DNA of 64,000 nucleotides from an uncultured Lachnospiraceae bacterium (GTDB taxonomy: Bacteria > Bacillota > Clostridia > Lachnospirales > Lachnospiraceae), in contig CANDFH010000005.1 in NCBI GenBank assembly GCA_947383945.1, positions 22,791 to 86,790 of the forward strand, written 5' to 3'. Both the position numbers and the translations under genes were made by a program. Each line of letters starts with the position of its first letter. Position 1 is the stretch's first letter. The notes beneath the pieces were generated by a model. It made no database searches and had not been told where the DNA came from. It saw only the letters and a program-made list of their open reading frames with translations. This document shows, in pieces, positions 2,995 to 20,556 of this stretch.

Positions 2995-3990
2995 TTATCC
3001 TACAAGACCTGAATTCTCCAGGTTTTCTACCAGCTTTCTCTGTCCGACCAAATAAACAATCAGCAGCGGAATCAAATAGACCAGTACGCCCGCCTGTTTT
3101 ACTGCATCAAACGCCATATCCGGCACAAGCGGCACATCATACCATACCCGCACCGCATTCATAACATAATCCTTATTTGCAGAACTAAATGTGGTGGAAA
3201 GCAGCGTACTCAAAAATCCGCCGTTCGGGTTAAAATAATTTGTGTAATAAGTATCGCCGTAGTTCCATACAAACGACAAAATTGCAACTGTGGAGATAAT
3301 CGGCACTGCATTTGGTATCATAATGCGGAAATATGTTTTATAAAACCCGCAGCCATCAATCAGCGCTGCTTCCTCCAGCTCCTTTGGAATATTTTTAAAG
3401 AACTGGCTGAACAGGAAAATAAACAAACTCTGATTTACTCCAAATCCAAAAACCGCCAAGATAACAAGTACAATTGGGTTGTTAATTAAATTAACCTCGC
3501 CCGCTTTTGTAAATATATTCATAATACCGAGTACATCAAAGTGGTTAAAGAAAATATATTGTGACAAAAGCAGCGACTGTCTCGGAAGCAGGAACACCAA
3601 AATAACCATAAAGAATACAACATTCCTGCCCCAGAAATTGATTCTCGCCAAAGAATAACCAACCATAGCGGAGAAGAAAATCTGAATTACCATAATACCG
3701 GTCGCATACAGCACGGATTTTGCCATTGTCATCAGTCCGTTTGGCAGAATAAAGCGGATTGCTGCTTTAAAGCTGACAAGGGATTTCTCAAGAGGCAGCC
3801 AGATTACATTTGGGTTGCCAAGCTCTTCAATCGATGACAACACAACTGGAACAAGGTTTAAAAGCGGCAAAATAATCGTAAAGCAAAGTCCTAAAATCAA
3901 CACGGTAGTAATAATCTTAAGTATTGTTTTTTTCGACCGCTTTTTAAACAGATATATTGCGAGCGATGCGTTCCTATCATTATTTTTCAT
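2995..3990 (-). CDS. Sugar ABC transporter permease, LplC/YtcP-like (CUT1 family)
   Basis: Multi-TM protein with EAA-like motif ALIDGCGFYKTYFRIMIPNAVP. Confidence 0.8.
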   Translation of the reverse strand: MKNNDRNASLAIYLFKKRSKKTILKIITTVLILGLCFTIILPLLNLVPVVLSSIEELGNPNVIWLPLEKSLVSFKAAIRFILPNGLMTMAKSVLYATGIMVIQIFFSAMVGYSLARINFWGRNVVFFMVILVFLLPRQSLLLSQYIFFNHFDVLGIMNIFTKAGEVNLINNPIVLVILAVFGFGVNQSLFIFLFSQFFKNIPKELEEAALIDGCGFYKTYFRIMIPNAVPIISTVAILSFVWNYGDTYYTNYFNPNGGFLSTLLSTTFSSANKDYVMNAVRVWYDVPLVPDMAFDAVKQAGVLVYLIPLLIVYLVGQRKLVENLENSGLVG

Positions 3991-4885
3991 TCTTCTTCAC
4001 CACCTTTCGCAGCAGCAGCATAACAACACCAAGCACGATCAGCACGTTAAAAATATAGACAACCGACAGCGCGGAACTGATACCGATTTTATTTTGGCGG
4101 AACGCAAACGCATACACTTCCTCCGCCACCGGCGACTCAATAAACAGCTGCACAATCGTATATACAATCACAAACAATGTGATATGCATAATGGAAGGAA
4201 TCGTAACCTTCCAGAATGTCTCGTAAGCTGTCGCACCCTCCATCTTCGCTACTTCGTAAAGGCTTGGGCTGATGGACTGAAGCGCTGTCAAATACACAAG
4301 TGTCTGAACACCTGCCTGCGAGATCAATGTAAAAATATTTTCAATGTAACTGATAATCGGATAAAGCACCCTCATTGGAACATTTAAAATGCGCACAAGG
4401 AATATGGTAATATAGCTGCCGGACACCAGCTGGCTGCCTGTATCCAGACTCTCTGTCCCTGTTGTCATAGTAAGCATTGAAGTGACAACCTCAATTCCAA
4501 GAATAATCGGCAGGAAGAAAATCAACCGCACAACCGCACGCCCTTTAAATTTTTGATTTGCAAGCAGCGCCATAAACAAACTGAACACAACAATCAGCGG
4601 CACGCTGATCAAAAGATTCTGGTTCTGTTCGGCAAACAACCGCATCATTGTTGTGGAGGTTGTTGTTACTTCTGTTTTAAACAGATCGATATAGTTTTGT
4701 ATTCCATTCCAGGAGAACGTCATACCGCCGCTTTCCCCGACGCCTACCTTATTAAAAGAGTAATATACGGTATTGATAATCGGTATCAGGAAAAATGCTA
4801 TAAAACCAATCAGAAACGGCGCTACGAAAATCAACCCGTTAATTTTCTTTTTTACCTGATAAGGCAGTTTCTTTTTGTTCTTCAT
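3980..4885 (-). CDS. Sugar ABC transporter permease, LplB-like
   Basis: Motif YLTALQSISPSLYEVAKMEGATAYETFWKVTIPSI; 6 TM. Confidence 0.8.
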   Translation of the reverse strand: MKNKKKLPYQVKKKINGLIFVAPFLIGFIAFFLIPIINTVYYSFNKVGVGESGGMTFSWNGIQNYIDLFKTEVTTTSTTMMRLFAEQNQNLLISVPLIVVFSLFMALLANQKFKGRAVVRLIFFLPIILGIEVVTSMLTMTTGTESLDTGSQLVSGSYITIFLVRILNVPMRVLYPIISYIENIFTLISQAGVQTLVYLTALQSISPSLYEVAKMEGATAYETFWKVTIPSIMHITLFVIVYTIVQLFIESPVAEEVYAFAFRQNKIGISSALSVVYIFNVLIVLGVVMLLLRKVVKKNEK

Positions 4886-4888
4886 ACT

Positions 4889-7537
4889 TTATTTCACCCC
4901 CCGAATCAGATAACTCTCAGCATCAAGCGCCGCGCCGTCCTCAAGTTCCACGCTGTGAAGATTATAATTGACGATAACCTCCACTCCATTTGCATAAGTT
5001 GTCTTATAAACGTTCTTTGCCAGACATGTATGTCCTGCAATTTCGTTTGTTCCAATCTGACTGCGGATATCTTCAATTTCTGTATACATCGATTTGATAT
5101 CGTTCTTTAAAAGATCGTACTGTGAAGAGTACAGATAATGATAATCTGTATACTTTAATTTTGTCACAGGCTCCGAAGTCAGAATATATTTCGGATAAGA
5201 ACCAAGTTCTGCCGCCTGCAAAACAAAATATGCCGCATTCTTTGAAGAGATATTGACATTTTCTGTCGTGTAGTCCACAAGACCGTTCATCACAAGCTGA
5301 CGGAATGGAATAGTATACAGAAATGTTGCGTAATCACTGCTCTCCTTCGAGACATCAACCGCAATGCTTCCATAACTGATGTTGTCAATAAACGGATCAG
5401 TAAGAGCAAGCTGACGGTCAGAAAGCTTCTTTAGATTTTCCTGAATTACCGCTGCGCCTTCCTCCCCGGTTATCATTTCATTAAAATGGTAATCTGCATA
5501 GTACATTCCAGCAAGATCTGTAACAGCCAACTTTCCGTAATCATTTGATTTCTTTAAAAACTTATCTGTTACATAGCTTAAATAAGCCGGTGAAATAATA
5601 TAATGCCCATTATGAGTAACGCCGCCGTACATCTCGCCGCTTAAAATTCCGACTGCTGGCATATAACGGTACATTATGACTTCATCATTGCCAAAATTTC
5701 TGACAGCATGATTGCTTGCCATAAACCCGTTTCCGCCTTCTGACACGTTCGAGAGAGCCACTGCAAGGTAGAAATCAAATCCTTTTTGCTGTGCGTAATC
5801 CATCAGTGACTTCAGCTCTTTTTTGCTGCCGTTCGCACCAGTCAAGGACGCTTTTGCGTTCATCTTTCCGTCCATTCCGCCGTTGAATGCTCCGTCGTAC
5901 TGCACTTGGTAATTTACGCCCTCAAGGTCATCCATAATCTTTTTCAAATCCTTGTAGCTTGTCATGGAATAAACCGAGTTGTACGGGATACCGACAAAAC
6001 GCTTCTGCAAAGAAACTGCCCCGATAAATTCCAGGTAAAGACTTGCCGCTCCATTGTCGTATTCCACCTGCATACCATACCGATCAGCGAGATACGTCTG
6101 ATAGTCTTTCGCCATATCAAAATACGTAACCTGACTGCCGTACATCTGATAGCGCACCGTACAGTCAATATCCTGCATTCCTGTCTGAACCAGATAATTT
6201 GCGGAATTTGTGCTGTATGCACCGTTGATCTTTACCCTCTGAAACTGGTTGATATCAAAAGATGCATAAGCTTTATTGTATTTGTAACTTCCCTCCGCTG
6301 TCCCGGCAAGCTTTACATTGATATAAGAATTGTATGCGCCTGATTCAATAATCGCCAAAAAACCTTTCTCCGTGTTGTCCTGCGGTCCGTAGAGCATACC
6401 ATAAATCGGCATCATCAATTCTTCGCCGTACTCTGGCATAAAGAAATAATCTTTGTAAAAATCATTGTCGTACACTGGCCGCTCATAGTCCTTAATGCTC
6501 GGCTGATTGCTGTTAAACGCAAACAGAGCACCTGCGCCGTCCGGCACAAGAATATAGCCGTCCGCATAATCTGCCGCCGCTGCCGCGCCAAAGTTCGGCA
6601 AAAATTTTACATTCTGGATGCTGTAGAAGTCATTGTTTGATACCATTGCCCCTGCTGGCATTCTCACAACAAGCTCGCCGTCCTGCAATGTAACCTCGAC
6701 TGTGATATCAAAATTTGCCGGCTCTGTAAAAGTTACAGTAAAACCAAACTGATCCGCATCCTCCATCAACATATCCTGCGTATATCCAACTACCTTTACA
6801 ATTTCAAGCATCTGTTTTACAGCGCTGACTGGCGGCGTGCCGGTGTAAGTCACTGCATAACACTCTTCCATAATACTTCTGGCATACACAAGACCAAGTG
6901 TCATTATGTATCTCTGCTTTTGTATGGAAGTGATTGTTCCCGCTTCCTGCGCCTTTGTAAGTCCGCCGACAAAGAATTCCTCATATCGCTCAATGGACAT
7001 TTTCTTTGGACAGTACTCATAAAAACGCTGTGATTCTCCCTCGTTGAAATTCATGAAAATACGGATGCCGTCCTTTATGCGCTGCATATTATAAGAACCG
7101 AGCGCCACGCTGTTATCATAAGAATTCCACTCGCCTAAATTGTTGTCCTCCCCCAAATACTGCACGGAAAGCAGCGCCTTCTCACTGCCTTCCTCCGCGC
7201 TTGCAGCCCCGGAAGTAAGGGTTGTTCCTGTCGCCTTATCCACCAGTTCCAAAATCATGGTTTCAGTGGAAAAATATAATTCTTTTCCTCCGTTTTCCGC
7301 AACCAGAATACGCCCTTCTTCCTTTGCAATCTCGCCAAGTGATTCGGAGAGCGGTTTGCTTTTCACATCTGGAAGCTTTTCTTTTTTGACAAACAGCACC
7401 GGGATCATGCAGATTATGCCAATCACCAGCGCAGCACACAAAATTGTAAGAAACAGTTTGCGGATGATATGTTTGGAGTAGAAGCGCCGGATCGCTTGAA
7501 CCATTTTATTTCCTTCTAAGTTTTTTAAAAAATTCAT
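4889..7537 (-). CDS. Large extracytoplasmic protein with a single N-terminal TM anchor (DUF5696-like by recollection); function unknown
   Basis: 882 aa with one N-terminal TM (LFLTILCAALVIGIICMIPVLFV) and no recognisable catalytic motif; embedded in the sugar ABC operon next to a YIP1-like gene. Confidence 0.45.
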   Translation of the reverse strand: MNFLKNLEGNKMVQAIRRFYSKHIIRKLFLTILCAALVIGIICMIPVLFVKKEKLPDVKSKPLSESLGEIAKEEGRILVAENGGKELYFSTETMILELVDKATGTTLTSGAASAEEGSEKALLSVQYLGEDNNLGEWNSYDNSVALGSYNMQRIKDGIRIFMNFNEGESQRFYEYCPKKMSIERYEEFFVGGLTKAQEAGTITSIQKQRYIMTLGLVYARSIMEECYAVTYTGTPPVSAVKQMLEIVKVVGYTQDMLMEDADQFGFTVTFTEPANFDITVEVTLQDGELVVRMPAGAMVSNNDFYSIQNVKFLPNFGAAAAADYADGYILVPDGAGALFAFNSNQPSIKDYERPVYDNDFYKDYFFMPEYGEELMMPIYGMLYGPQDNTEKGFLAIIESGAYNSYINVKLAGTAEGSYKYNKAYASFDINQFQRVKINGAYSTNSANYLVQTGMQDIDCTVRYQMYGSQVTYFDMAKDYQTYLADRYGMQVEYDNGAASLYLEFIGAVSLQKRFVGIPYNSVYSMTSYKDLKKIMDDLEGVNYQVQYDGAFNGGMDGKMNAKASLTGANGSKKELKSLMDYAQQKGFDFYLAVALSNVSEGGNGFMASNHAVRNFGNDEVIMYRYMPAVGILSGEMYGGVTHNGHYIISPAYLSYVTDKFLKKSNDYGKLAVTDLAGMYYADYHFNEMITGEEGAAVIQENLKKLSDRQLALTDPFIDNISYGSIAVDVSKESSDYATFLYTIPFRQLVMNGLVDYTTENVNISSKNAAYFVLQAAELGSYPKYILTSEPVTKLKYTDYHYLYSSQYDLLKNDIKSMYTEIEDIRSQIGTNEIAGHTCLAKNVYKTTYANGVEVIVNYNLHSVELEDGAALDAESYLIRGVK

Positions 7538-7553: not shown

Positions 7554-8183
7554 CTACATTCTTCGGATCATTTCCTGCGCGACGGAGACAATAAACGAGA
7601 TCATCTGCTCGATCAGCGTAAAGAAAAGCATTCCGATAAATACAATAATAATCGCCGCGATAAAGGTTAGAAAAATCGCTGCTGCATTTTTGCCGAACGT
7701 GTATTCATGAATCGTCAAAAGCCCTGCTACCAGCATAAAGATCGACCATACCAGACCGAGAGAAACAATAACATTTAAAATCATTGCTTCTTCGAGAATA
7801 ATAAAATTACTTGCAAAAATCTTGATAATAACACCGACCATATAGGGAACCAGCGAATAGCCAAGCACCGTAATAATTGCAGGCAGATTGCCGCTGCCGT
7901 TCAACAGTGTTGTCACCGTCCAGTTGCTGACGGCAAAAAGCACAAGCACAAGCACGGTGGTCGAAAAGATCGAGAGGCTGTTCATTGTTTCCAGCTCATT
8001 TGTATTCATAATAAATCCGGTATATTGATACTCAACACAGCGCAGGATGCCAAAAATCATCAAAAGCAATATCGCTAACAGTGCGCTGCCTCTCCCACGG
8101 AAACGAATCTCATAAAATCCGTCAAAGGGATGGAAAATCGAGCATTTCAGATAATAAAGTTTCTCACTCAGCTCTGTTTTCAA
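7554..8183 (-). CDS. YIP1-family multi-pass membrane protein
   Basis: 209 aa with about 5 TM helices; size and topology typical of the Yip1 domain; conserved neighbour of DUF5696 genes. Confidence 0.5.
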   Translation of the reverse strand: MKTELSEKLYYLKCSIFHPFDGFYEIRFRGRGSALLAILLLMIFGILRCVEYQYTGFIMNTNELETMNSLSIFSTTVLVLVLFAVSNWTVTTLLNGSGNLPAIITVLGYSLVPYMVGVIIKIFASNFIILEEAMILNVIVSLGLVWSIFMLVAGLLTIHEYTFGKNAAAIFLTFIAAIIIVFIGMLFFTLIEQMISFIVSVAQEMIRRM

Positions 8184-9661
8184 TTCTTCTTCCCCCCTTT
8201 CTTATGGTAGCGGACTTCTGTAAAAATCATCCAGCCAATCAAAAGGACAAAAATAATCATAATCACCGGAAAATATTTTTCAAGCATCTCACTGCGGTAG
8301 CCATTGTAAGCTTTCGAATAGAAATTCCGGTTCTGACCAAGTTTGAAATACTCCATCGCTTTTTTGTACTCGCTCTTCATCAGATAGTTTTTCCCGATAC
8401 CGCTGTACGCCACATCGTAATTTACATTCAAGTTAATCGCTTTCTCAAAATGCACAAGAGCGTCGTCCCATCTTCCGTTGTAATAGCAGCGGTTTCCGTC
8501 AAGCACCGCCTGACCAAACTTTGTCGGAGCCATAATATAGGCACATTTTAAAGTTTTATCACTCACGACAAGCTTATCGCCAAGCCAGGCAATACCGGAT
8601 GGATCTTTAAACTCTCCCTTAAGATTTCCGAGTGTTCCGAATACATTGAGCAGCTCGCCGTCGAAATTGTAGAGAAATATTCTTCCATGGCTGCGGTCAA
8701 TCAGCGCGTAAGTGCCGTAATCTGTCACTGCGATATCGACAAAACGGCTTCCGTTATCGTCGCTGTGGATGCTCCAAAGCTCGCCGGTAACAGGAGTATT
8801 TCCTTCCTCGCGCAGTACGTTTCCGCCCTTTGAATTTAGACGAAACACCATATCTGCCGCAGAAGAATCATAAGTAACCGCCATAATAAACCCTTCGCCG
8901 TCCAACGTAATATTGTTAAATGCCGGCGCATAAGTTTTTGACATCTGCTCCTTCTGCTCGTCGCTCGCCAGCGACTTCCAGAAATAATCAATCAAGCTCA
9001 CCCGCGGCGTATTGACGCCGTAATACCCGGAGAAACTTCCGTCTGCCGTCAGCTCAATAATTCCTTCATAGCTGGACTGAACAATTACATAAATACGATC
9101 CGCCAAGTCAACAGCAAGCTTTGACGGCTTAAACTGCGCCGCACCGGTCAGATTGTCTGGCTGTTTGATCATGCGCTTTAAAGAATAGTTGTCAAGATCA
9201 AGCACCAGAATCCGCGCCGCGCCGGTATCTGCAATATACAACTCGCGGTTTTTCTCATGGACGAACACGCCCTCTGGAGAAGTCAGCATAATCTGATTGC
9301 CGTTCTCGTCCAGTGCAATTTTATTATCCGCATTGCGGATCAGCTTTAGATTCGCAAGCAGCTTTCCGTTGGAATCCAGTGCAAAAACTCTGCTTTCTGT
9401 AGCATCCACAAGAAAAATTCTGCCGTCCTTGCTTGTGCATACATCGTCCACGCTGCCGAGTTTCGCGCCGTCGAGGTTCTCCTGACTGATCGTGCGCTCC
9501 AGCTGAAACGCTGCTGGACTCTCTTTCACATTTGCCCAAAAATCATACGTATAGCCGTCATAGACATAGCTGCTGCCATCCGACGCCAAAGCTCTTACTG
9601 GCAGCGCGAGCAGAATGAATACAAAGGTAATACCGATGATTCGTCTTATTTTTTTATTCAT
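8180..9661 (-). CDS. Secreted NHL-repeat beta-propeller protein with C-terminal TPR motif and C-terminal TM anchor
   Basis: Signal peptide; repeated NHL-like blades (ELYIADTGAARILVLD, RIYVIVQSSYEGIIEL and others); TPR-like AINLNVNYDVAYSGIGKNYLMKSEYKKAMEYF; terminal hydrophobic helix. Confidence 0.55.
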   Translation of the reverse strand: MNKKIRRIIGITFVFILLALPVRALASDGSSYVYDGYTYDFWANVKESPAAFQLERTISQENLDGAKLGSVDDVCTSKDGRIFLVDATESRVFALDSNGKLLANLKLIRNADNKIALDENGNQIMLTSPEGVFVHEKNRELYIADTGAARILVLDLDNYSLKRMIKQPDNLTGAAQFKPSKLAVDLADRIYVIVQSSYEGIIELTADGSFSGYYGVNTPRVSLIDYFWKSLASDEQKEQMSKTYAPAFNNITLDGEGFIMAVTYDSSAADMVFRLNSKGGNVLREEGNTPVTGELWSIHSDDNGSRFVDIAVTDYGTYALIDRSHGRIFLYNFDGELLNVFGTLGNLKGEFKDPSGIAWLGDKLVVSDKTLKCAYIMAPTKFGQAVLDGNRCYYNGRWDDALVHFEKAINLNVNYDVAYSGIGKNYLMKSEYKKAMEYFKLGQNRNFYSKAYNGYRSEMLEKYFPVIMIIFVLLIGWMIFTEVRYHKKGGKKN

Positions 9662-9671
9662 GCTGTATCAC

Positions 9672-10559
9672 CTACCCTTTTATTCCCGATGTGGACATCG
9701 TCTCAATGACATTGCTCTGAGATACTACAAACACGCCGACTGGAACAACAAGCATAACCAAAGATACTGCGGATGCGACGCCGGTTCTTGCAATACCGCC
9801 GCTGACCAGCTGCGAGAGCACATAACTCAACGGTTTTAATTCCTCAGAATAGATAAAGATACCGCCCGTCGTCCCCCACATCTGCTGGAATGAGAAAATA
9901 ATCAGTGTAATCCATGCTGGCTTACACAGCGGCATAACAACCTTCCAATAAGTCTGAAATTCTGTCGCGCCGTCAATCTTCGCCGCCTCAATCATTGCGT
10001 CCGGCACCTGCACCATAAAGTTTTTCATCAGGTAAAGACCAAGAGTGCCGCCGACTGCCGGGAGAATTACAGCCCAGTAGCTATCGATCAAGTGCAGCGC
10101 GCTCATAATCAGATAGTTTGGAATCGCAGTTACCGAGGCGGAAAACATAAGTGCATAGACAATCAAATTGCTCATAAATTCCGAACCTGGAAATTTATAT
10201 TTTGCAATCGGAAACGCTGCCATGGAACCGAGCAGCACTGTTCCGAATGTACCGATTCCCGTAATTAACAGAGTGTTGAACGCATACCGTGAAAATGGAA
10301 TTGCAAAGCTCTCAATAATTGTTGCAAGATCGACAAAGTTGTCTGTGGTGGGGTTATCGACCATCAGCCGCGGCGGAAAGATAAAAATTTCGCTGAACGG
10401 CTTAAATGCACTTGTTATTGTATACAGCAGCGGGAAAAGACTGAAGATGCCGAAAATTCCAAGAATAATGATAAGGGCAGCATCTCCGCCGACGCTCCGG
10501 TTTCTCCGCTTGAATTTCCGGCTCACCAGCTTCTTTTTAATAAATCGAAATAATTTCAT
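9672..10559 (-). CDS. Sugar ABC transporter permease (MalG/LplC-like)
   Basis: Motif AAKIDGATEFQTYWKVVMPLCKPAW; 6 TM. Confidence 0.8.
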   Translation of the reverse strand: MKLFRFIKKKLVSRKFKRRNRSVGGDAALIIILGIFGIFSLFPLLYTITSAFKPFSEIFIFPPRLMVDNPTTDNFVDLATIIESFAIPFSRYAFNTLLITGIGTFGTVLLGSMAAFPIAKYKFPGSEFMSNLIVYALMFSASVTAIPNYLIMSALHLIDSYWAVILPAVGGTLGLYLMKNFMVQVPDAMIEAAKIDGATEFQTYWKVVMPLCKPAWITLIIFSFQQMWGTTGGIFIYSEELKPLSYVLSQLVSGGIARTGVASAVSLVMLVVPVGVFVVSQSNVIETMSTSGIKG

Positions 10560-10568
10560 AGCGGCCTC

Positions 10569-11561
10569 CTATCCAAGTTTTCTTAACAGCTTCTGTACAA
10601 GCACGTTGCAGATTAACATAATACAGAATAAAATTACTGCAATCGTACATGCATATCCCAATTCGTAGCGGATATTACCAAAGTCATGCAAATGCGTCAA
10701 AATCGTATGCCCGGCGTAATTTGGTGACGGAAAACCAACAAGGTCGATGGAGAGCTGTGACACAGACAGAGAACTTGTAATCTGCATAACCGCACCAAAC
10801 ATCAACTGTGGCTTCATACATGGCAGAGTGATATACCAAAGTTCCTGCCAACGGTTTTTAATACCTTCAACCGCAGCTGCCTCATAGAGTGATTGATCCA
10901 TATTCTGCAAACCTGCGATAAAGGTCAAAAAGCTGATACCAAGGCTTAACCACAGCTGCACAACAATCAGGATTGGCATAATATAACCTTCTGTCTGCAG
11001 CCACAAAATCGCCTCGCTTGTAAGTCCAAGTTTCATCATCCAGGCGTTTGCCCACCCGTAAGTATCCGATGAAAATAAGAGTTTCCATACCAAGTACGCA
11101 TTACCTGAAATGGACGGCGCATAAAATACAAGCGTCATTATTGCGCGCGGAATGCGCGGAAGATCGTTGACAACCCACGCGAAAAGAAAACACATAATAT
11201 AGCTGACTGGTCCTGTGATAATCGCAAACACAAGCGTGTTTTTTACCGCCGTCAAGAAAATTGGATCGTAGACAATCAGCTTAATATAGTTTGCAAAACC
11301 GATAAATTCCGGCGCCTCCACCATATCGAAGGAGGTGAGGGAAAGTATCATCGAAATCACCACCGGCAGGAATGTAAAAACAACAAAGATGATGGCGAAC
11401 GGTGCAATCATCATATATTTATATTTGTGCCTTCTCCATACGGAGGAAAATTTCCTGTCTTGGGATAATTTTTCCTGCACAGACGCTTCCATTGCAGAAA
11501 CAGCTCCTCCCTGTTCGGAAACTTTCCCCATTGGGGAAATTGTTTTTTTCTGTTTTCCCAC
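10569..11561 (-). CDS. Sugar ABC transporter permease (MalF/LplB-like)
   Basis: Motif EAAAVEGIKNRWQELWYITLPCMKPQLMF; 6 TM. Confidence 0.8.
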   Translation of the reverse strand: MGKQKKTISPMGKVSEQGGAVSAMEASVQEKLSQDRKFSSVWRRHKYKYMMIAPFAIIFVVFTFLPVVISMILSLTSFDMVEAPEFIGFANYIKLIVYDPIFLTAVKNTLVFAIITGPVSYIMCFLFAWVVNDLPRIPRAIMTLVFYAPSISGNAYLVWKLLFSSDTYGWANAWMMKLGLTSEAILWLQTEGYIMPILIVVQLWLSLGISFLTFIAGLQNMDQSLYEAAAVEGIKNRWQELWYITLPCMKPQLMFGAVMQITSSLSVSQLSIDLVGFPSPNYAGHTILTHLHDFGNIRYELGYACTIAVILFCIMLICNVLVQKLLRKLG

Positions 11562-11576
11562 AATTATCCCTCCTTC

Positions 11577-14468
11577 CTATTTTGTATAGCTCAAGTGCAG
11601 TTCTTCGCGCTTCCTGGTTAGTTCCTCGTTGATCGATTTGATATTCAAATACAAAGTCTCACGCGGATTAGCATTTTTTGCCACCACATCGTTAAACGCA
11701 TACTGTACCATACGTGTTGTCATATAATTTCCTGGTACTGCCTCAATACCGATCGTTGCCTCAAACTGAGAAAGCAGGGAACTAAGCTCTGCATTGCTCC
11801 ATGGAAGCTGACGCAATACTTCTGGATCTGCTGCCGAATATCTCGCTGCCGTACCCATCAAAGCTTCAAGAGAATTCGCAAACGAAAGCTGTGCGTCGGT
11901 TCCTGTCCACCACTTGACAAACTCCCATGCTGCTTCCTGCTTTTTGCTCTGCGCCATAATTACAGTAGCTACGGTATCCACAACAAAACTGTGATCGATG
12001 GTTCCATCCGCTTTCTTTGTCCCAAGCATTGGAGCAAAGGTCCAGCGCCCCTTAATCTCCGGCGCAAAGATTTCAAGCTGGTTAAATGTATTGTAGGTAA
12101 TCACGCCGATTGGCACTTCCCCTGTTCGGAAACGGTTTGTAAAGTCCACCTGCACTTCCATGCCATAACCGGTATAAAAATCAGTAAAATCTTTAAATGC
12201 CTCCATCGCTGCATCGGATTCCAGCGCGCTGACAATACCGTAGTCCTTTCCCTCTCCGCCGTAAGCGTCGCCGCCATTCTGGAATACCATGGAAAAATAC
12301 AGGTTGATATATCCAGCATTCTGCTGTACGTTTGGTATGTAGGCATTGTAATTGTTTTTCTGAAGTACCGGGAGCATCTCCAAAAATTCCGTCCATGTCT
12401 GCGGTATGGAAAGTCCCAGAGAATCAAGAATATCTGTTCTCGCAAACACCATCATAAAGTTCGCCTGCTCTGGAATGCCGTACACGCCGCCCTGGAAACT
12501 TGTTGAATCCAGTGTGCTCTTATAAAAACGCCCTGCGATCTCCTCATAACCCGGCAGAGAAGAAAGCTCCGACACCGCGTTACGCATTGCAAAATCCTGC
12601 AGCGTAGACTGTCCAAGTCCAATTACGACATCCGGTCCATTTCCTGCCAAGGCAGCACGCAGCACAACGTCAACTGGAATCAGCTGAAGATTTACAGAAA
12701 TATTATGTTCCGGCGTAAAGGTCTCATCAATCTGATTCTGGATAATCTGAGCCTGCTCACGTCCAAACGACGCCATCCAGACTTTGATGGAATTGCTGCC
12801 TGATACATCCTCCTCCGTAATCTGGTTTGTGCTGTAGAAGAATGTTGAGAAAAATCGAACTACACTGTTTGCTGCCCCCTTAAAAAATCCCTGTTTTGCG
12901 GCAGGCAATTTGCTGTCCGGTTTTGATAAAAGGATGCTGTCCACCTCAAGCGGCATATTGGCAACATTGACAAGCCAGGTTGCAATCGCGGAAATATTAT
13001 TTTTAAACTGATTTAATTCCTCGATCACGCTCTCAGGATCTTTTGCCAGCCATTCTGCCTCCATCGCCATCTTTTCAAGCAAACTGGTGTTCTCACCTTT
13101 TTCTCCTGTGATCGCAACAATCGCATCAATCGCAGCGTAAAGATTCTCGCTCTCGCTCTTTAAATTCGCAACAAAATTCGGAAGTTTTTTTGCAATTTCA
13201 TAATCAATAAATTTATTTGGAGACTGCCCAGTCAGCTGAACTACCGAAAGGTATGTTTCATTCAGCACAGAAAGACTTTCCTCAATCTGACTGATAATTC
13301 CGCCCATAGGACCCATTACGTCCTCCAAAGTAATCGTGTTCTCACCTGCGTTTAAATAGAACAGATAAGGTTCACCTGCTTCGTCGGAAATTGTATACAT
13401 ATTCATATCGCTGCTATAATTAAAGCCGACGCTATTCACTTCTTTATACGGAACTTCCTCATTGATATAAAGTCTGCGGTAACTTGTAACACCGCGGTTT
13501 AAATTCTGTCTGCCCTTGACGGTCAGCTCATACAGTCCCGCTTCCGGCACTTCAACCCTCCATGTAATGGATTCACCCGGCAGCGCCCAGCTTGATGCGC
13601 CGATGGTATTGTACACAATATAGTACGGATGGTACGGCTCCAACAGCGTATCGGAATAATTCTTTTGAATATTGATCGAAGTGGAACTCTTGTAAATCGC
13701 TTTTGTGTTTTCCGTCGCACGCTCCGCCTGGCATATAATGTTTTCGCCGCCATACACTGGATACTGTGCTTTCAGCTCTTCAATTTTTTCTGTGTAAGTT
13801 TTTAGTTCCGGCGCTGCCGTAAATCGCAGCGAAGTATATTCCAACGGTTCTTTTGTCACATCAAACGTGATTGTATGTTTTCCCGCTGTAAGGAAGAAGA
13901 TCAGAGGTTCATTGTTGCGCCTGTTATAGTCCTCCACAAACCAGCTTGTATTGTGGTATATTTCATAAGCTCCCGGTCTGATCTCATTTTTATTTTTCAG
14001 TTTAATTTCTTCATCGGACCACCATCTCTTGATCACGACGCGCGCTAGATCTTCATAAGGGAGCTCCCCGTCAATCAAAATTTTTCTCTGAATGTCTGAG
14101 GTGGTTCCTGGAAGAGCAATGTATCCTAACTCCAGGTTATAAAAACCTGCTTCCGCCACATCAAACTCCCATGTAATCTGTCCCGTGTCCCCAGTCATAA
14201 TCCCTTCTAGACCAACTGTGACCTCGCAGTCTGCGGACGCAGTGTAGCGGTTTAAATCAATCTCCACTGTCTGTCCTGACATTCTGCCATCGTATCCATT
14301 GCTTTTCAGGTAGTTCTCGTAGCTCGACTCGTAGATCGTTTCAGAGTTTGCTGATGTCGCATAGATGTTTCCGTCTTTTCCTGAAACGATAAGGATAACT
14401 GCTATGAGCGCAACGAGCACAACCACCGCAATGATACGGATTCCCCTTTTCTTTTTCTTGTCTTTCAT
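11577..14468 (-). CDS. Membrane-anchored fusion protein: N-terminal TM, two tandem CBM-like beta-sandwich repeats, and a C-terminal family-1 extracellular solute-binding domain
   Basis: Internal repeats ITWEFDVAEAGFYNLELGY...IDGELPYEDL and ITWRVEVPEAGLYELTVKG...INEEVPYKEV; C-terminal about 450 aa are SBP_bac_1-like (KVWMASFGREQ...); 963 aa. Confidence 0.6.
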   Translation of the reverse strand: MKDKKKKRGIRIIAVVVLVALIAVILIVSGKDGNIYATSANSETIYESSYENYLKSNGYDGRMSGQTVEIDLNRYTASADCEVTVGLEGIMTGDTGQITWEFDVAEAGFYNLELGYIALPGTTSDIQRKILIDGELPYEDLARVVIKRWWSDEEIKLKNKNEIRPGAYEIYHNTSWFVEDYNRRNNEPLIFFLTAGKHTITFDVTKEPLEYTSLRFTAAPELKTYTEKIEELKAQYPVYGGENIICQAERATENTKAIYKSSTSINIQKNYSDTLLEPYHPYYIVYNTIGASSWALPGESITWRVEVPEAGLYELTVKGRQNLNRGVTSYRRLYINEEVPYKEVNSVGFNYSSDMNMYTISDEAGEPYLFYLNAGENTITLEDVMGPMGGIISQIEESLSVLNETYLSVVQLTGQSPNKFIDYEIAKKLPNFVANLKSESENLYAAIDAIVAITGEKGENTSLLEKMAMEAEWLAKDPESVIEELNQFKNNISAIATWLVNVANMPLEVDSILLSKPDSKLPAAKQGFFKGAANSVVRFFSTFFYSTNQITEEDVSGSNSIKVWMASFGREQAQIIQNQIDETFTPEHNISVNLQLIPVDVVLRAALAGNGPDVVIGLGQSTLQDFAMRNAVSELSSLPGYEEIAGRFYKSTLDSTSFQGGVYGIPEQANFMMVFARTDILDSLGLSIPQTWTEFLEMLPVLQKNNYNAYIPNVQQNAGYINLYFSMVFQNGGDAYGGEGKDYGIVSALESDAAMEAFKDFTDFYTGYGMEVQVDFTNRFRTGEVPIGVITYNTFNQLEIFAPEIKGRWTFAPMLGTKKADGTIDHSFVVDTVATVIMAQSKKQEAAWEFVKWWTGTDAQLSFANSLEALMGTAARYSAADPEVLRQLPWSNAELSSLLSQFEATIGIEAVPGNYMTTRMVQYAFNDVVAKNANPRETLYLNIKSINEELTRKREELHLSYTK

Positions 14469-14652: not shown

Positions 14653-16791
14653 CTACTCTGCTGCCACAACCTCTACAGCAACGGTTACGCTTCCGGTATT
14701 GCCCGCATAGTCTGTCACAGTAAGAACAACATTGTAAGTTCCTGCTGTTGTTGTATCAAGTTCAGAAAGATCAGCGGCAACCGTATCTTTTACATCAATA
14801 TTATCCGCATCCACAGCAGATTCAATATAATCCTTCCAGTTGATTGTCGTAGTATCTGTATCAAGTGCAACGGTTGGAAGTTCTGCTTTTGCAGTAACCG
14901 TAGGAGCCGTTGTATTGTTTGGATTGTAGACAATAACTTTAATCTTCTTGCTGCCTGTGTTGCCTGCCGCATCGGAAATCTTTGCCTCCACCGCATCGCC
15001 GTAAGAACCAGGCGTTGCGAAATCTACGGAATCAGAAACGCTGTACTCTGCCTTTGTCATATCAAGCTCGCCGTCCACACTGTCCTTTGCTGTAAAGTGC
15101 TCGCTCCAAACAATTGTCGATGGGTCGGTGCCTGCCGCAAAGACTGCTGTCGAACCGTCAACTGCCGGCGGCTGGTTGTCATGTACTTCATTCGATGCAA
15201 GAATCGATTCCATATTGCTTGTAACATTGGTAAAGAGATTCATATTTGCCTTAACTGCAACATCGTAAGAACTCATACCTTCCAAACCGTACAGGGACTT
15301 TCCGATTACTTTATCCCAAGTCTCACGGATACCAAGAAGGTCGCTGTAATCATTGACAAGTTTGTCTCCGATTGCAAGGAAGCACTCAAGAATCTTATCA
15401 CCGTACTCTTCATGGAATACGTCCATTCCCATATCTCTAAGCTGTGTAAGCGCGCTTTCCTCTTTGTATTTTACCACAGAATCAACGCCGCCAAGAGCTT
15501 TGTAATATTCCGTCCAGTAAACTGCGTAAGCTTTCAGCGCAAGTTCTGTCTTTTCCGGGCTGACACCCTTTAACACACCAACGGAGTCGCCAAGCGTAAT
15601 CGCCTGTGAATATTCCGGGTCATCAATGCTTAAAGAATCTTCTCTTGGCCACGGAACAATACCAATAATCTCACCGCGGTCTGCTGCGGAGGAAGCTACG
15701 CCGCCAATCCACCAGTCAGGGCAGTCTGTAAATACACATGCGCCCGCGCCAAAGTCGGATGCTGCTGTTGTCCATTGTGGTGTAAAGCCATCATCATAAA
15801 CACCAGGGTCTACCATAAGCTTCTTCTCAAAAAGATCTTCAATGTACTGCACCCCTTTAATGGACGCTTCGGAATCTGGCTCAAGACCGGAATTGCCATA
15901 AATTGCACCGCCTGCCGAATACATTGCAGAAAGACCAGCAAAACGATGATCGGTTTCATAAGCCTGAATCGTATCATACACTGTACCGTCCGGTGCTGCG
16001 GTGTTTGCATAATAAGCCTGAATCTTTGTCAGATAATCGGTAAATGTACTCCATGTCCAAGTTCCGTTCAAATAGTGATCCATCGGAGTGATTGTCTTGC
16101 CGTTCGCATCCTTTAAGGAATCTACTTTCTCGATCATAGAGATATTAAAGATCAGCGGCCAGCGCTGCTTATAGCGGATAACATTAGACATCAGGTAGTT
16201 GTGTCCATACAACTTATCATAGAACATCCATGATGTCTCTTCACCCTCGAATATGTAAGCATAATTATCCAGCTGCTGCAGTACGTTCTGCGCGAGAACT
16301 GTACCTTCCGCGCCGCCCCAGATCAGAGCAAGGTCACAGACCGGATTGCCTGCAAGCACACTTGTCATCAGCTCTTCTGTTGTATTTGCACTGTACTGGA
16401 TAAATTCAAATTCAACATTTAACTGTTCCTTCACCGCAGCAAGTGCAGCAAGCGCAGCCTGTCTCTCCGTTTCCTTCATCGTATAGTCGCCGGAAACCTC
16501 ATCCACATGATTTGGGTCAAGATCATTTACCCAGTGCGTACCATAACGAATTACCACCGGATCTCCCTGCGGTACATTTGCCTCCTCCGTCGGTGTTGGC
16601 TCAGCCTCCCCGGTCGGTTCCGTTGCCTCGGTCGGTGTCGGTGTAGGCGTCGGCTCTGTAGTTCCCTGTGTAGGGGACGCCGCCTGTGTAGGGGTCGGGG
16701 TAGGCTCTTTTTCATCACCACCGCCGCAGGCGGTCATGCTGGCTGCCATACACGCACTCATCAGCAATGCGCCAAGCTGTTTTTTTCTCAT
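14653..16791 (-). CDS. Lipoprotein ABC transporter solute-binding protein with two C-terminal Ig-like (DUF5011-type) domains
   Basis: Start trimmed to MRKKQLGALLMSACMAASMTACGGG (lipobox; RBS AGGAGG 8 nt upstream); PT-rich linker; SBP-type core; C-terminal motif TYNVVLTVTDYAGNTGSVTVAVEV. Confidence 0.7.
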   Translation of the reverse strand: MRKKQLGALLMSACMAASMTACGGGDEKEPTPTPTQAASPTQGTTEPTPTPTPTEATEPTGEAEPTPTEEANVPQGDPVVIRYGTHWVNDLDPNHVDEVSGDYTMKETERQAALAALAAVKEQLNVEFEFIQYSANTTEELMTSVLAGNPVCDLALIWGGAEGTVLAQNVLQQLDNYAYIFEGEETSWMFYDKLYGHNYLMSNVIRYKQRWPLIFNISMIEKVDSLKDANGKTITPMDHYLNGTWTWSTFTDYLTKIQAYYANTAAPDGTVYDTIQAYETDHRFAGLSAMYSAGGAIYGNSGLEPDSEASIKGVQYIEDLFEKKLMVDPGVYDDGFTPQWTTAASDFGAGACVFTDCPDWWIGGVASSAADRGEIIGIVPWPREDSLSIDDPEYSQAITLGDSVGVLKGVSPEKTELALKAYAVYWTEYYKALGGVDSVVKYKEESALTQLRDMGMDVFHEEYGDKILECFLAIGDKLVNDYSDLLGIRETWDKVIGKSLYGLEGMSSYDVAVKANMNLFTNVTSNMESILASNEVHDNQPPAVDGSTAVFAAGTDPSTIVWSEHFTAKDSVDGELDMTKAEYSVSDSVDFATPGSYGDAVEAKISDAAGNTGSKKIKVIVYNPNNTTAPTVTAKAELPTVALDTDTTTINWKDYIESAVDADNIDVKDTVAADLSELDTTTAGTYNVVLTVTDYAGNTGSVTVAVEVVAAE

Positions 16792-16846
16792 ATTACCTTC
16801 CTCCTTTAATTCAAACATAAAATATATTATTCGGTAATTTTCTCTT

Positions 16847-16862: not shown

Positions 16863-16906
16863 AATTATATTATAAGCGTTATGCACAGTTTTTGTCAACT
16901 TTATTT

Positions 16907-17131: not shown

Positions 17132-18883
17132 TCAGCCGACATCCGGCTCGTCACGAAGCGTAATTGTCTCAGAAACCTTGCCCTCCGTCTCAAATAAAAT
17201 AATCTCATTTCTGCCCATTTTCAGCAGCGGCGCTGGAATGTACAGACGCTTCTGAGGTCCAATTTCCCAGAACCGCCCCAAATTAAAACCGTTTAAAAAT
17301 GCACAGCCTTTTCCCCATCCTTCAAAATCAAGGAATGTATCGCCCGCTTCATCCACCGTAAAAGAAAACCGATAAAATGCAGGGGTATTTTCTTGATAAT
17401 CGCGCGAGAAATCAATATGATCCACATTGTCAAGCGGAAGCGTGTACTGCTGCCAGTTATTGTGAATATGCCCGTTAATCTGAACACAGTGATCGATCCC
17501 TTTGCGCTGTAATTCCATATAAGGTCCAAAGTTGACACGCCCCATATTTTCCACAAGAATGTCAATCTGAGAATCCTTTTTTAACGGCAGCGGCTTCGCA
17601 AATTTTTTCTCCTCCAAAAGCTCCCTGTCATAGAGTGTGGCAATGAACTGCTTGTCGACAAAAAGACTTGCTCTGTCATTTGCGCGCCACAGCTTAATCC
17701 TCTCTATACTCTCCTCTGTCGCAAGCGGTGAGCGATATAAAATATATCCGTAACCCTGCCCAAGTTTCTCCATTGACTGCGTGTACGGACTTTCCACCGG
17801 ACAGCTGATATCATCCAGCACAGAAAACAGACTGACCTTTTCTTCCACCTCAAGTTTTCCATAGGCTTTGCGGGCAATCTTTGTCGTCAGTTCCACCTTA
17901 GGCACAGGCGCGTGTTTTGCTATTACTTCCTGATAGCGCTTATACTTTTCTGTGATCTGCCCATCTTCTGTCAAAAGCCCATCGTAATCGTAGGAAGTTA
18001 CATCCGGCGTCAGTTTATCATAATAGTTTGAACCGTTCATAAATCCAAAGTTTGTTCCGCCCTCAAACATATAGATATTGACATTGCCAAGCTCCAGCAT
18101 TTTGTCAAGATCTGCAACGCTCTCTTCCAGATTTCCCCGCATATGACCGCCGTTGCCCCAATGGTCAAACCAACCGACCCAAAATTCAGTACACATCAAC
18201 GGACCGCCGTCCGTGTAGCGAGAAAGCAGTGAAAACCTTTCTTCTGTCTTAGAACCAAAATTTCCTGTTGGCAGCACGCCAGGAAGTTTCCCTGCATTCA
18301 TGCTCTCTGGATACGGACCGTCGGAAGTCACAAGCGGAACATCAATTCCACCTTCTGCCATAAGCTTTTTCATCTCCTGCATATAGGCTGTATCTGTTGC
18401 ATAGTATCCGTATTCATTTTCCACTTGCATCAAAATCACTGGTCCGCCATGCGTGATCTGCAATGGGATAAGCTTCGGCAGCAAAATATTGTAATATTCC
18501 TTTACATGTTTTAAAAACGGGGCATAACTTGTACGCAGCTTCATGCCATCTTCCGCCAAAAGCCAAGCTGGAAGTCCTCCAAATTCCCACTCTGCGCAGA
18601 TATAAGGAGATGGCCGCAAAATCACATAAAGTCCAAGTGCCTCCGCCTCTTTTACAAACGCTGCAACATCCAGTATTCCATCAAACTTAAACTCTCCTTT
18701 TTTCGGTTCGTGCATATTCCATGGAATATAAGTTTCTACTGTGTTGCAGCCCATTGCCTTTAATTTTTCCAACCGATCTTTCCAATATTCCGGCACAGTT
18801 CGAAAGTAATGAAATGCCCCGGAAATAATTTTAAACGGCTGACTGTCCAGATAAAAATTGTCCTTAATTTCAAACTTACCCAA
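17132..18883 (-). CDS. Beta-galactosidase, glycoside hydrolase family 35
   Basis: GH35 signature GGPVILMQVENEYG with upstream YIPWNMHEP; 583 aa. Confidence 0.9.
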   Translation of the reverse strand: MGKFEIKDNFYLDSQPFKIISGAFHYFRTVPEYWKDRLEKLKAMGCNTVETYIPWNMHEPKKGEFKFDGILDVAAFVKEAEALGLYVILRPSPYICAEWEFGGLPAWLLAEDGMKLRTSYAPFLKHVKEYYNILLPKLIPLQITHGGPVILMQVENEYGYYATDTAYMQEMKKLMAEGGIDVPLVTSDGPYPESMNAGKLPGVLPTGNFGSKTEERFSLLSRYTDGGPLMCTEFWVGWFDHWGNGGHMRGNLEESVADLDKMLELGNVNIYMFEGGTNFGFMNGSNYYDKLTPDVTSYDYDGLLTEDGQITEKYKRYQEVIAKHAPVPKVELTTKIARKAYGKLEVEEKVSLFSVLDDISCPVESPYTQSMEKLGQGYGYILYRSPLATEESIERIKLWRANDRASLFVDKQFIATLYDRELLEEKKFAKPLPLKKDSQIDILVENMGRVNFGPYMELQRKGIDHCVQINGHIHNNWQQYTLPLDNVDHIDFSRDYQENTPAFYRFSFTVDEAGDTFLDFEGWGKGCAFLNGFNLGRFWEIGPQKRLYIPAPLLKMGRNEIILFETEGKVSETITLRDEPDVG

Positions 18884-19312: not shown

Positions 19313-20374
19313 CTATTTTTGCTCACTGTTCACTGGTCCTGTCGTATCTCTCACAACAAGTTTTGTCTTTATATACTGGACTTGCTGAACCTTCTCGCCC
19401 TCCACCGCTGCGACCGCGGAACTCACAATCCTCTCGCCAAACTTGTCATAGCCATAATCAATGCTTGTCAGCTTCGGCGTAACCAGACTAGAAATAAACG
19501 TATTATCATAACCCATCACCGAAATATCTTCCGGAATACTCAGACCATGACCACGGATATTTGCCATCACCCCAAGCGCAGTGTACTCGTTGATTGCCAC
19601 AACCGCCGTCGGCACTTCCCCCGCGGCAAACAAAGCCTCCATCTGTTTATAACCTGCTTCGTAATCGTAGTTGCCTTCCTGGCGATACAGCTCGTTTGGA
19701 AACGGCAGCCCGTATTTTTTCAGCATACGCCGATAAACTCTCTCTCTCTCCTCTGTGGCAATATCGCTGTCCACACCGCCGAGAAATGCAATCTTGCGAT
19801 GACCAAGCTCAGCTAAATATTCTATCACAATCTCCATAGACTGTCCAGCGTCAATCTGGACACGGTAACATCCTGTGCCATCCAACTTTCCGGTTATCAT
19901 CATCGGAATATTCTTTGTCGTTCGGTTTACATGTTCGGCATACTCTTTGTTTGTGCAGACCTCATCCACTCTTCCACCCATCTGGATAATCGCGTCAACC
20001 CGTTTTTCCTCCAGCATCTCCAGCAAAATCTTTTCCTGCTCTCTGTCGCAGTAAGAATTGCACAACAGTACGGTGTATCCCTTTCTGCGCGCTGCCGCCT
20101 CGCACGCGACAAACAGTTCAGAATAAAACGGATTTCGGATATCCGCCACCATAATGCCGATTGTCTTGCTCCTTGTGTCAACCAGCCCTCGCGCCATTGC
20201 ATTCGGTCTAAAATTATACTTTTCAATAATTTCAAGAATTCTTTCTCTCTTGTCCGTTCGAACGTTCGTGCTGTTTGTCAACACGCGCGAAACGGTGGCA
20301 GCTGATACATTCGCTTCCTTTGCTATATCGTATATCGTAATGGCTCTGCCCTCATTTTCCTTGTTGCAATCCAT
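19313..20374 (-). CDS. LacI-family transcriptional regulator
   Basis: N-terminal HTH ITIYDIAKEANVSAATVSRVLTN; periplasmic-binding-fold C-terminus. Start chosen at MDCNKENEG; the ORF track extends to 20458. Confidence 0.8.
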   Translation of the reverse strand: MDCNKENEGRAITIYDIAKEANVSAATVSRVLTNSTNVRTDKRERILEIIEKYNFRPNAMARGLVDTRSKTIGIMVADIRNPFYSELFVACEAAARRKGYTVLLCNSYCDREQEKILLEMLEEKRVDAIIQMGGRVDEVCTNKEYAEHVNRTTKNIPMMITGKLDGTGCYRVQIDAGQSMEIVIEYLAELGHRKIAFLGGVDSDIATEERERVYRRMLKKYGLPFPNELYRQEGNYDYEAGYKQMEALFAAGEVPTAVVAINEYTALGVMANIRGHGLSIPEDISVMGYDNTFISSLVTPKLTSIDYGYDKFGERIVSSAVAAVEGEKVQQVQYIKTKLVVRDTTGPVNSEQK

Positions 20375-20556
20375 TGTAGACACCCTAATCCCTGTCAAAA
20401 CTTTTACTGGTCTTAACTCTATAAGGAATATTGTATTTACCTTTTCTTTCAATGTCAAGCAGAAAAACTGACAAATTTAACTTTTTACAGCAAAAAACGT
20501 ATTCGTACAAGGGCAAATGGTTCCAAAACGTCTTAAAACAAAAGTTGTAAATCTTA

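Follow-up and report, generated by a model that had tools for sequence, protein, structure and literature searches.

A 963-residue solute-binding protein (SBP) from an uncultured Lachnospiraceae bacterium, hereafter the long SBP, joins a duplicated module related to carbohydrate-binding modules (CBMs) to a complete transport SBP domain, and its gene opens a colinear set of eight genes that is conserved from Lachnospiraceae to Paenibacillus. The gene lies in a window of 64,000 nucleotides, the whole stretch of DNA analysed here (NCBI GenBank assembly GCA_947383945.1, contig CANDFH010000005.1, positions 22,791 to 86,790 of the forward strand). In the reading that we favour, to which a probability of roughly 0.45 is given, the long SBP would act as substrate-receptor subunit in a multi-protein ATP-binding cassette (ABC) glycan-import cassette of Bacillota, and its N-terminal module would hold the glycan near the transporter. 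An initial annotation had proposed that CBM-like repeats capture a glycan and that the SBP domain takes over the fragments. As judged from sequence, this hand-off is plausible, but taken alone it ignores the strongest signal of the gene context, namely the linkage to an NHL/TPR protein, a Yip1-domain protein, a DUF5696 protein and a second pair of permeases.

Domain architecture of the long SBP

The long SBP is encoded by a single complete open reading frame (ORF) with an ATG start (11577..14468), as the ORF list and its translation confirm; this gene, the segments of its product and the genes of its locus are all on the minus strand. A full-length AlphaFold2 (AF2) model, built on a 50-sequence alignment, has a mean predicted local distance difference test (pLDDT) score of 82.9 and a predicted template modelling (pTM) score of 0.75. 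It consists of an N-terminal helix (residues 3-28), two beta-sandwiches (about 60-217, 13818..14291, and about 244-386, 13311..13739), a stretch at 12834..13310 made of a helical bundle (388-503), one beta-strand (508-515) and a Phe-rich amphipathic helix (528-543), and a C-terminal alpha/beta domain (560-956). The N-terminal module modelled separately (residues 30-556) reaches a pLDDT of 88.6 and a pTM of 0.87. R538, F539 and F543 of the Phe-rich helix are invariant among orthologues. The flexible linker that follows (residues ~546-559, 12792..12833) is the segment of lowest conservation in the protein, and residues 542-556 have pLDDT values below 50 and are modelled as disordered.

The N-terminus reads MKDKKKKRGIR and continues with 19 uncharged hydrophobic residues (IIAVVVLVALIAVILIVSG). 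This basic start and hydrophobic run, together with the AF2 helix, fit the signal-anchor that had been annotated (residues ~10-30, 14379..14441), and the protein has no lipobox, since there is no Cys in the N-terminal region. Alternatively, cleavage could take place at a conserved [IVL]-[YF]-A motif (residues 35-37). By a heuristic count, an uncharged run of at least 18 residues is present at the N-terminus in 104 of 117 orthologues. The same kind of heuristic finds short signal-peptide-like N-termini followed by A-x-A-type sites in about half of the paralogue representatives (P0127-P0270) and a lipobox almost nowhere, and these paralogues would therefore need other means of membrane retention. 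The targeting signal thus differs within the family, with a transmembrane (TM)-length run in the long SBP and most orthologues and a cleavable-Sec-like signal in about half of the paralogues.

At the C-terminal side there is, as had been proposed, a complete CUT1/MalE-type SBP domain (residues ~560-956, 11601..12791). Residues 575-881 score 85.2 bits against Pfam SBP_bac_1 (cutoff 26) and 79.6 bits against SBP_bac_8 (cutoff 27), the two-lobe periplasmic-binding-protein fold is complete, and the nearest solved relative by sequence is Lin1841 of Listeria innocua (PDB 5ysb, E-value 3e-15), a beta-1,2-glucooligosaccharide-binding protein. Many Trp, Tyr and Phe residues of the domain are invariant in the family alignment. 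Its function as a transport SBP serving the adjacent permeases is well supported, and the long SBP belongs to the CUT1 SBP family and works in the same manner. Ordinary members of this family (Pfam SBP_bac_1, e.g., Lin1841) are lipoproteins of 400-450 residues, whereas the long SBP has about 550 extra N-terminal residues, no lipobox, and a tie to three accessory proteins and a second pair of permeases.

The two beta-sandwiches are homologous repeats. Pairwise BLASTP aligns repeat 1 (~97-210) with repeat 2 (~300-395) at 29% identity and an E-value of 3e-7, and hhalign of their family profiles gives a probability of 99.7% and an E-value of 4e-26. The repetition noted in the initial annotation therefore stands, although each repeat measures about 145-160 residues and not about 180, and the ITW..V.EAG.Y and PY motifs on which it was based recur in both repeats in the BLASTP alignment. 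Repeat 1 differs from repeat 2 by a conserved insertion of about 25 residues (~134-158, window positions 13995-14069). Around it, and on to residue 169, R148, W150, D152, N161, R164, P165 and E169 are conserved, with the family consensus W-x-D...G-N-x-x-R-P-x-Q-x-E, and the insertion could represent a functional site of its own.

Both repeats are rich in beta-strands in the two AF2 models, and structure comparison of the model superposes their fold on CBM35 modules with 122-128 residues aligned at about 2 Å. Foldseek agrees on a CBM6/CBM35 jelly-roll fold for the repeats; it found no solved structure that covers the whole N-terminal module (query TM-score at most 0.28), and the helical bundle matched generic or designed helical bundles only. 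At the profile level, repeat 2 (29 family members) matches the CBM35-1 of PsCITase, the Paenibacillus sp. 598K CITase, at 1e-9 over 97 profile positions, and it also matches 2w47 and 2vzp (about 2-3e-3) and, more weakly, several CBM6 modules. Membership of both repeats in the CBM6/CBM35 jelly-roll superfamily, and with it the CBM assignment made at the outset, is thus supported by fold and by profile comparison. All relatives found by either route are carbohydrate-binding modules; the repeats fall into no family of another kind, and no sign of missing ligand-cleft residues was found in the SBP domain. The jelly-roll fold is common to the repeats and to the CBM35 modules of glycoside hydrolases (GHs), such as those of Xyn30D (4qb1), CsxA (2vzp), C. 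thermocellum (2wz8/2w47) and CITase (3wnk/5x7g), and so is the core motif G-x-W-[IL]-x-[WY]-x-V-x-V-x-x-x-G-x-Y. Unlike the modules carried by enzymes, the repeats sit in tandem on a transport receptor, packed on a helical bundle, and their ligand and calcium sites are putative.

Several residues of repeat 2, where conservation within the N-terminal module is highest, recall a sugar site. The repeat opens with QAE, and W294, four residues ahead of its G-x-W core, is nearly invariant; QAE and W294 would match the Glu and the aromatic position in the loop site of CBM6/35 modules. In PsCITase, the platform of the canonical CBM35 site is Trp507 (PMC5408701). A loop Trp present in most paralogues falls two positions from Trp507 in a profile alignment in which the loops are aligned uncertainly, while in the orthologue group of the long SBP this position is Met355, with Tyr358 nearby. 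QAE, W294 and the loop Trp or Tyr are hints of a sugar site, and the orthologue-specific change near the Trp507 position could reflect substrate specificity.

The architecture had been regarded as uncommon, which was not borne out. A search with the full protein found at least 775 full-length homologues of 940-1,010 residues, of which the few that are named carry only the label "extracellular solute-binding protein". A search of 1.84 billion cluster representatives (clustered at 50% identity) with the N-terminal module (residues 40-550) recovered 1,763 representatives at E-values up to 1e-3 and 781 at up to 1e-30. The best 150 of the 1,763 have a median length of 960 residues; the module occupies their N-terminal end and is followed by about 400 residues. 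The long SBP therefore belongs to a large family of Firmicutes from gut and soil and is not a rare fusion. An artefact or mis-assembled fusion was also considered and is ruled out by the full-length layout in the at least 775 homologues and the 1,763 representatives. A scan of one genome per species contained 168 relatives, and the family extends over Lachnospiraceae (Acetatifactor, Butyrivibrio, Roseburia, Anaerocolumna, Anaerotaenia), Oscillospiraceae, Christensenellales, Tissierellaceae, Cellulosilyticaceae and Paenibacillus. The nearest loci, at 87-90% identity, come from metagenome-assembled genomes labelled as uncultured Lachnospiraceae or Clostridia bacteria (isolates MGBC… and SRR…). 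Across the superfamily, identity to the long SBP is 38% in repeat 2, 39% in the SBP domain and 27-28% in repeat 1 and the helical bundle, and the repeat 2 loop residues N287, W294, Q321, G326, R331 and E343 are invariant or nearly so across paralogous cassettes. A literature search, incomplete in its coverage of journals, found no work on the long-SBP family or on a CBM-SBP fusion, and an earlier description is possible.

A constant cassette around the long SBP gene

The long SBP gene is followed after 15 nucleotides by a permease gene (permease 1, 10569..11561) and, 9 nucleotides further on, by a second one (permease 2, 9672..10559). Next come the genes for a protein with a signal peptide, an NHL beta-propeller, TPR repeats and a C-terminal TM helix (8180..9661; Pfam NHL and TPR), a Yip1-domain polytopic membrane protein (7554..8183; Pfam Yip1, 1.2e-17), an 882-residue DUF5696 protein with an N-terminal TM anchor (4889..7537; Pfam DUF5696, 4e-139), and two more permeases (permease 3, 3980..4885, and permease 4, 2995..3990). 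All four permeases are BPD_transp_1 proteins above the Pfam threshold. They form two MalF/MalG-type pairs, each with what looks by eye like an EAA-like loop. The NHL/TPR and Yip1 genes overlap by 4 nucleotides (8180-8183), and from the long SBP gene to permease 4 the genes either overlap or are separated by at most 16 nucleotides. The cassette contains no ATPase gene.

The linkage of these genes was assessed by tblastn of the cassette proteins against 91 fetched loci, counting those with at least 8.7 kb of downstream sequence. The colinear core, that is, the long SBP, two permeases, the NHL/TPR, Yip1 and DUF5696 proteins and two further permeases, was present in all 63 of 63 loci, which span Lachnospiraceae to Paenibacillus and include four distant paralogues. 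Paralogue contexts were sampled singly; apart from four contigs that were too short to be of use, this covered five distant paralogues, with 27-35% identity in the N-terminal module. Four of the five have the full core, and the fifth (L081) keeps this order up to Yip1, where its contig ends. The hydrolases beside these cassettes vary: GH18, together with a canonical 448-residue SBP, in L081; GH20 and a GH109-like protein in L082; GH2 and GH53 in L085; an amidohydrolase in L090; and GH51, GH2 and a GH5-CBM46 protein in L091. With a constant core and changing hydrolases beside it, the cassette is conserved and substrate-independent, and the long SBP is its signature receptor. Some paralogous cassettes seem to have a single SBP: a conventional SBP gene cannot be seen next to the L091 cassette, and there the long SBP is therefore apparently the sole SBP for four permeases. 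In L082 (14922-17033) and L085 (14537-16681), the NHL/TPR and Yip1 proteins are fused in one ORF of 703-714 residues, a Rosetta-stone arrangement that points to joint action of the two accessory proteins.

Genes for regulators of the LacI, AraC and GntR types lie near many cassettes, and some SBPs are known to double as sensors. On this basis, the long SBP might report glycan availability to a regulator and deliver nothing to the permeases. This is the least probable of the explanations considered, as the cytoplasmic part of the protein has only about 9 residues and no signalling domain, the nearby regulators are one-component cytoplasmic types, the gene lies 15 nucleotides upstream of the permease genes and is tightly packed with them, and in L091 the protein is apparently the only SBP available to four permeases.

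The DUF5696 protein may be a membrane-anchored, GH129-like glycosidase candidate, because the PDB matches of known function are GH129 or GH129-like only. These matches are DagB (5opq, 5e-3) and NagBb (5wzn, 0.04), obtained with a 29-sequence DUF5696 profile whose hits in the PDB are weak; the best, 8rzk/8rzg (3e-3), to which three colinear stretches align, is a periplasmic protein that carries no annotation. DagB is an enzyme composed of a beta-sandwich, a TIM-barrel and an Ig-like domain (PMC5698469). The single DUF5696 sequence gave noise only against the PDB (FGF matches, E-value ~0.1). A search with the protein, aimed at DUF5696 proteins without a long SBP, returned close orthologues only, and a search for papers on DUF5696, PF18952 or IPR043751, in incompletely covered journals, found none.

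Upstream of the long SBP lies the first gene of the operon (14653..16818), which encodes a 721-residue lipoprotein (lipobox MTACGGG) with a Pro/Thr-rich linker and two C-terminal Ig-like domains (Bact_surface_Ig-like). A lipoprotein of this kind directly precedes the long SBP gene in 69 of 74 loci. The long SBP gene had been placed between a canonical lipoprotein SBP with Ig-like domains and the permease genes; the location between an Ig-like-domain lipoprotein and two BPD_transp_1 permease genes is correct, but the lipoprotein does not qualify as a canonical SBP. Its core of about 450 residues has no SBP match in Pfam or the PDB, either as a single sequence or as a 24-sequence profile, and sequence-versus-profile comparison gave no convincing SBP match. 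It is 25% identical to the canonical SBP of L081, and hhalign against the long-SBP family aligns 182 columns of the SBP domain with an E-value of 1e-3 and a probability of 21%. The lipoprotein is probably a very divergent relative of SBPs.

Proposed glycan capture, possible docking and related systems

According to the reading favoured here, the long SBP would be inserted in the membrane through its N-terminal signal-anchor, and its MalE-type domain, carried on a linker of about 15 residues, would bind an oligosaccharide and dock on the adjacent permease pair, possibly on the second pair too, with ATPases supplied by genes elsewhere. At this locus, the oligosaccharide would probably be a beta-galactoside-containing fragment freed by a surface GH30 enzyme. 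Ahead of the SBP domain, the rigid module formed by the duplicated CBM35-type jelly roll and the helical bundle would hold the incoming glycan chain beside the transporter and the membrane-anchored DUF5696 enzyme candidate, and fragments would pass from there to the SBP. The module would do so as part of a fixed assembly that also includes NHL/TPR-Yip1 and DUF5696.

Several points weigh against this reading. First, the Pfam CBM_35 model stays below its gathering score of 28, as the full protein reaches 23.1 bits and the N-terminal part 25.9 bits, and the match spans only profile positions 24-58 of 121 (residues 84-118), the core motif. The repeats are therefore termed CBM35-like members of the CBM6/35 superfamily and not CBM35 members. 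Second, the repeat 2 loops are near-invariant beside GH18, beside GH20, beside GH2 with GH53 and beside GH51 with GH5, a constancy that substrate-specific CBMs usually do not display, and a conserved partner or a structural role therefore fits at least as well as substrate-specific capture. The repeats would also lie near the membrane anchor, beneath the cell wall and not at the cell surface. Finally, the paralogue signal peptides without a lipobox seem to point to a tethering role for the module.

These observations bring forward an alternative that we consider possible, if less probable than glycan capture. It can be postulated that the CBM35-derived repeats and the bundle no longer bind sugar and instead fix the SBP to the TPR/NHL ectodomain, Yip1 and DUF5696, thereby organising a two-importer complex in which the SBP domain alone meets the substrate. 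Such docking would agree with the linkage of the long SBP to the NHL/TPR, Yip1 and DUF5696 genes in all 63 loci, four distant paralogues included, with the NHL/TPR-Yip1 fusion in L082 and L085, and with TPR domains being protein-binding modules. Repeat 2 is conserved as much as the SBP domain (38% versus 39%), its loops are constant whatever the GH neighbours, and the model of the N-terminal module is a single rigid unit (pTM 0.87). Among the paralogue representatives, about half have short signal-peptide-like N-termini, with the lipobox almost absent, and would have to be retained at the membrane by other means. Yet contact with the accessory proteins is putative, every relative by fold or by profile is a carbohydrate-binding module, and the aromatic loop residues typical of CBM sites are kept. 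Moreover, the long SBP has a TM-like anchor of its own and does not strictly need a tether.

Glycan capture and docking are compatible, as the variable repeat 1 could bind glycan and repeat 2 could dock. A more far-reaching combination of the two would make the long SBP the hub of an undescribed glycan capture-and-import machine in monoderms, a fixed complex of two ABC importers, an NHL/TPR-Yip1 scaffold and a membrane-anchored, GH129-like DUF5696 enzyme, with the CBM35-derived module docking to the scaffold and threading glycan to the enzyme and the SBP. This machine would be the Firmicute counterpart in logic to the SusCD utilisome of Bacteroidota, reused for many glycans, and in this elaborate form the proposal is rather unlikely.

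A CBM-type fold on proteins of which many paralogues have no obvious membrane anchor also raises the idea of a cell-wall anchor or spacer, in which the repeats bind the wall glycopolymers of the cell itself or act as a rigid spacer, with no role in capture or in contacts with accessory proteins. According to a preprint on C. jejuni Ape1, CBM35 domains can aid peptidoglycan-acting enzymes. However, an SBP held at the wall would be unable to dock on permeases, and the module adjoins the membrane anchor and is only about 15 residues away from the SBP. The loops are conserved even though the wall polymers of Paenibacillus are not those of Lachnospiraceae, and the strict linkage to the NHL/TPR, Yip1 and DUF5696 genes would be left unexplained. 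A wall anchor is accordingly improbable, well behind docking.

Among known importers, GlnPQ and OpuA have an SBP fused to the permease itself, and some Gram-positive and archaeal SBPs are TM-anchored. The long SBP resembles these proteins in being held by a polypeptide tether and not by lipid, with a flexible linker that would reach the permease; we know of no tethered or fused-SBP importer of the GlnPQ or OpuA type with CBM-type domains or dedicated accessory membrane proteins. The Sus-like systems of Bacteroidota (SusD, surface glycan-binding proteins and SusC) follow the same logic, in that a constant core is reused beside different hydrolases. They share no homology with the cassette, which works through an ABC importer in a monoderm envelope and in which capture by CBM35-like domains is only proposed. 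What seems to be new here is an ABC-importer receptor with a duplicated CBM-type module inside an undescribed accessory-protein cassette.

Lachnospiraceae, Oscillospiraceae and Paenibacillus import complex glycans mainly via ABC importers. The capture of long oligosaccharides beneath a thick wall, and their delivery to such importers, are poorly understood, and a large unstudied family bears on this question, within an invariant eight-gene cassette that holds three proteins without an assigned role. If the module binds glycan, or organises a transporter-enzyme complex, the long SBP would represent a new class of transport receptor, and DUF5696, along with the Yip1 and NHL/TPR proteins of bacteria, would gain a function. 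Substrates could also be predicted better in gut Firmicutes, as the cassette flags loci in which the glycan can be told from the hydrolases at its flanks.

Surroundings of the locus

In the window, the last gene of the locus encodes an extracellular GH30 lipoprotein (1203..2783; Pfam Glyco_hydr_30_2, 1e-50). Its PDB matches include 3clw, AcXbh30A and an endo-beta-1,6-galactanase, and with 3clw, an uncharacterised Bacteroides protein, as the best solved relative, they point to no one GH30 subfamily. Just upstream of the 721-residue lipoprotein gene lies a gene for a GH35 beta-galactosidase (17132..18883; Pfam; PDB 4e8c at 7e-177), a cytoplasmic enzyme without a signal peptide, and beyond it, also upstream, one for a LacI-family regulator (19313..20458). 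The substrate of this locus is probably a beta-galactoside-containing glycan that would be cut outside by the GH30 lipoprotein and finished inside by GH35. The LacI regulator, GH35, the lipoprotein, the long SBP, the four permeases and GH30 are co-localised and co-oriented on the minus strand, as expected for a Gram-positive ABC-transporter glycan utilisation locus.

A sigma-70-type promoter-like site (TTGACA-18 nt-TATAAT, 12 of 12 matches; 16869..16898, minus strand) is found by pattern match about 50 nucleotides upstream of the lipoprotein start codon, and a terminator-like hairpin, likewise a pattern match only, lies behind the GH30 gene at 1113-1091. The two sites suggest a single predicted transcript of about 15.7 kb.

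Two further features of the window may be mentioned. A GerA-family spore germination gene adjoins the locus (20557-22086, minus strand), which fits a spore-forming Lachnospiraceae host. Further away, an 882-residue ORF (30648-33296, minus strand) contains a Major Vault Protein shoulder domain (PF11978, 5e-15) and a sub-threshold Vault_3 repeat, and this bacterial Major Vault Protein-like ORF adjoins two large FtsX-type permease genes (33838-36465 and 37326-39863).

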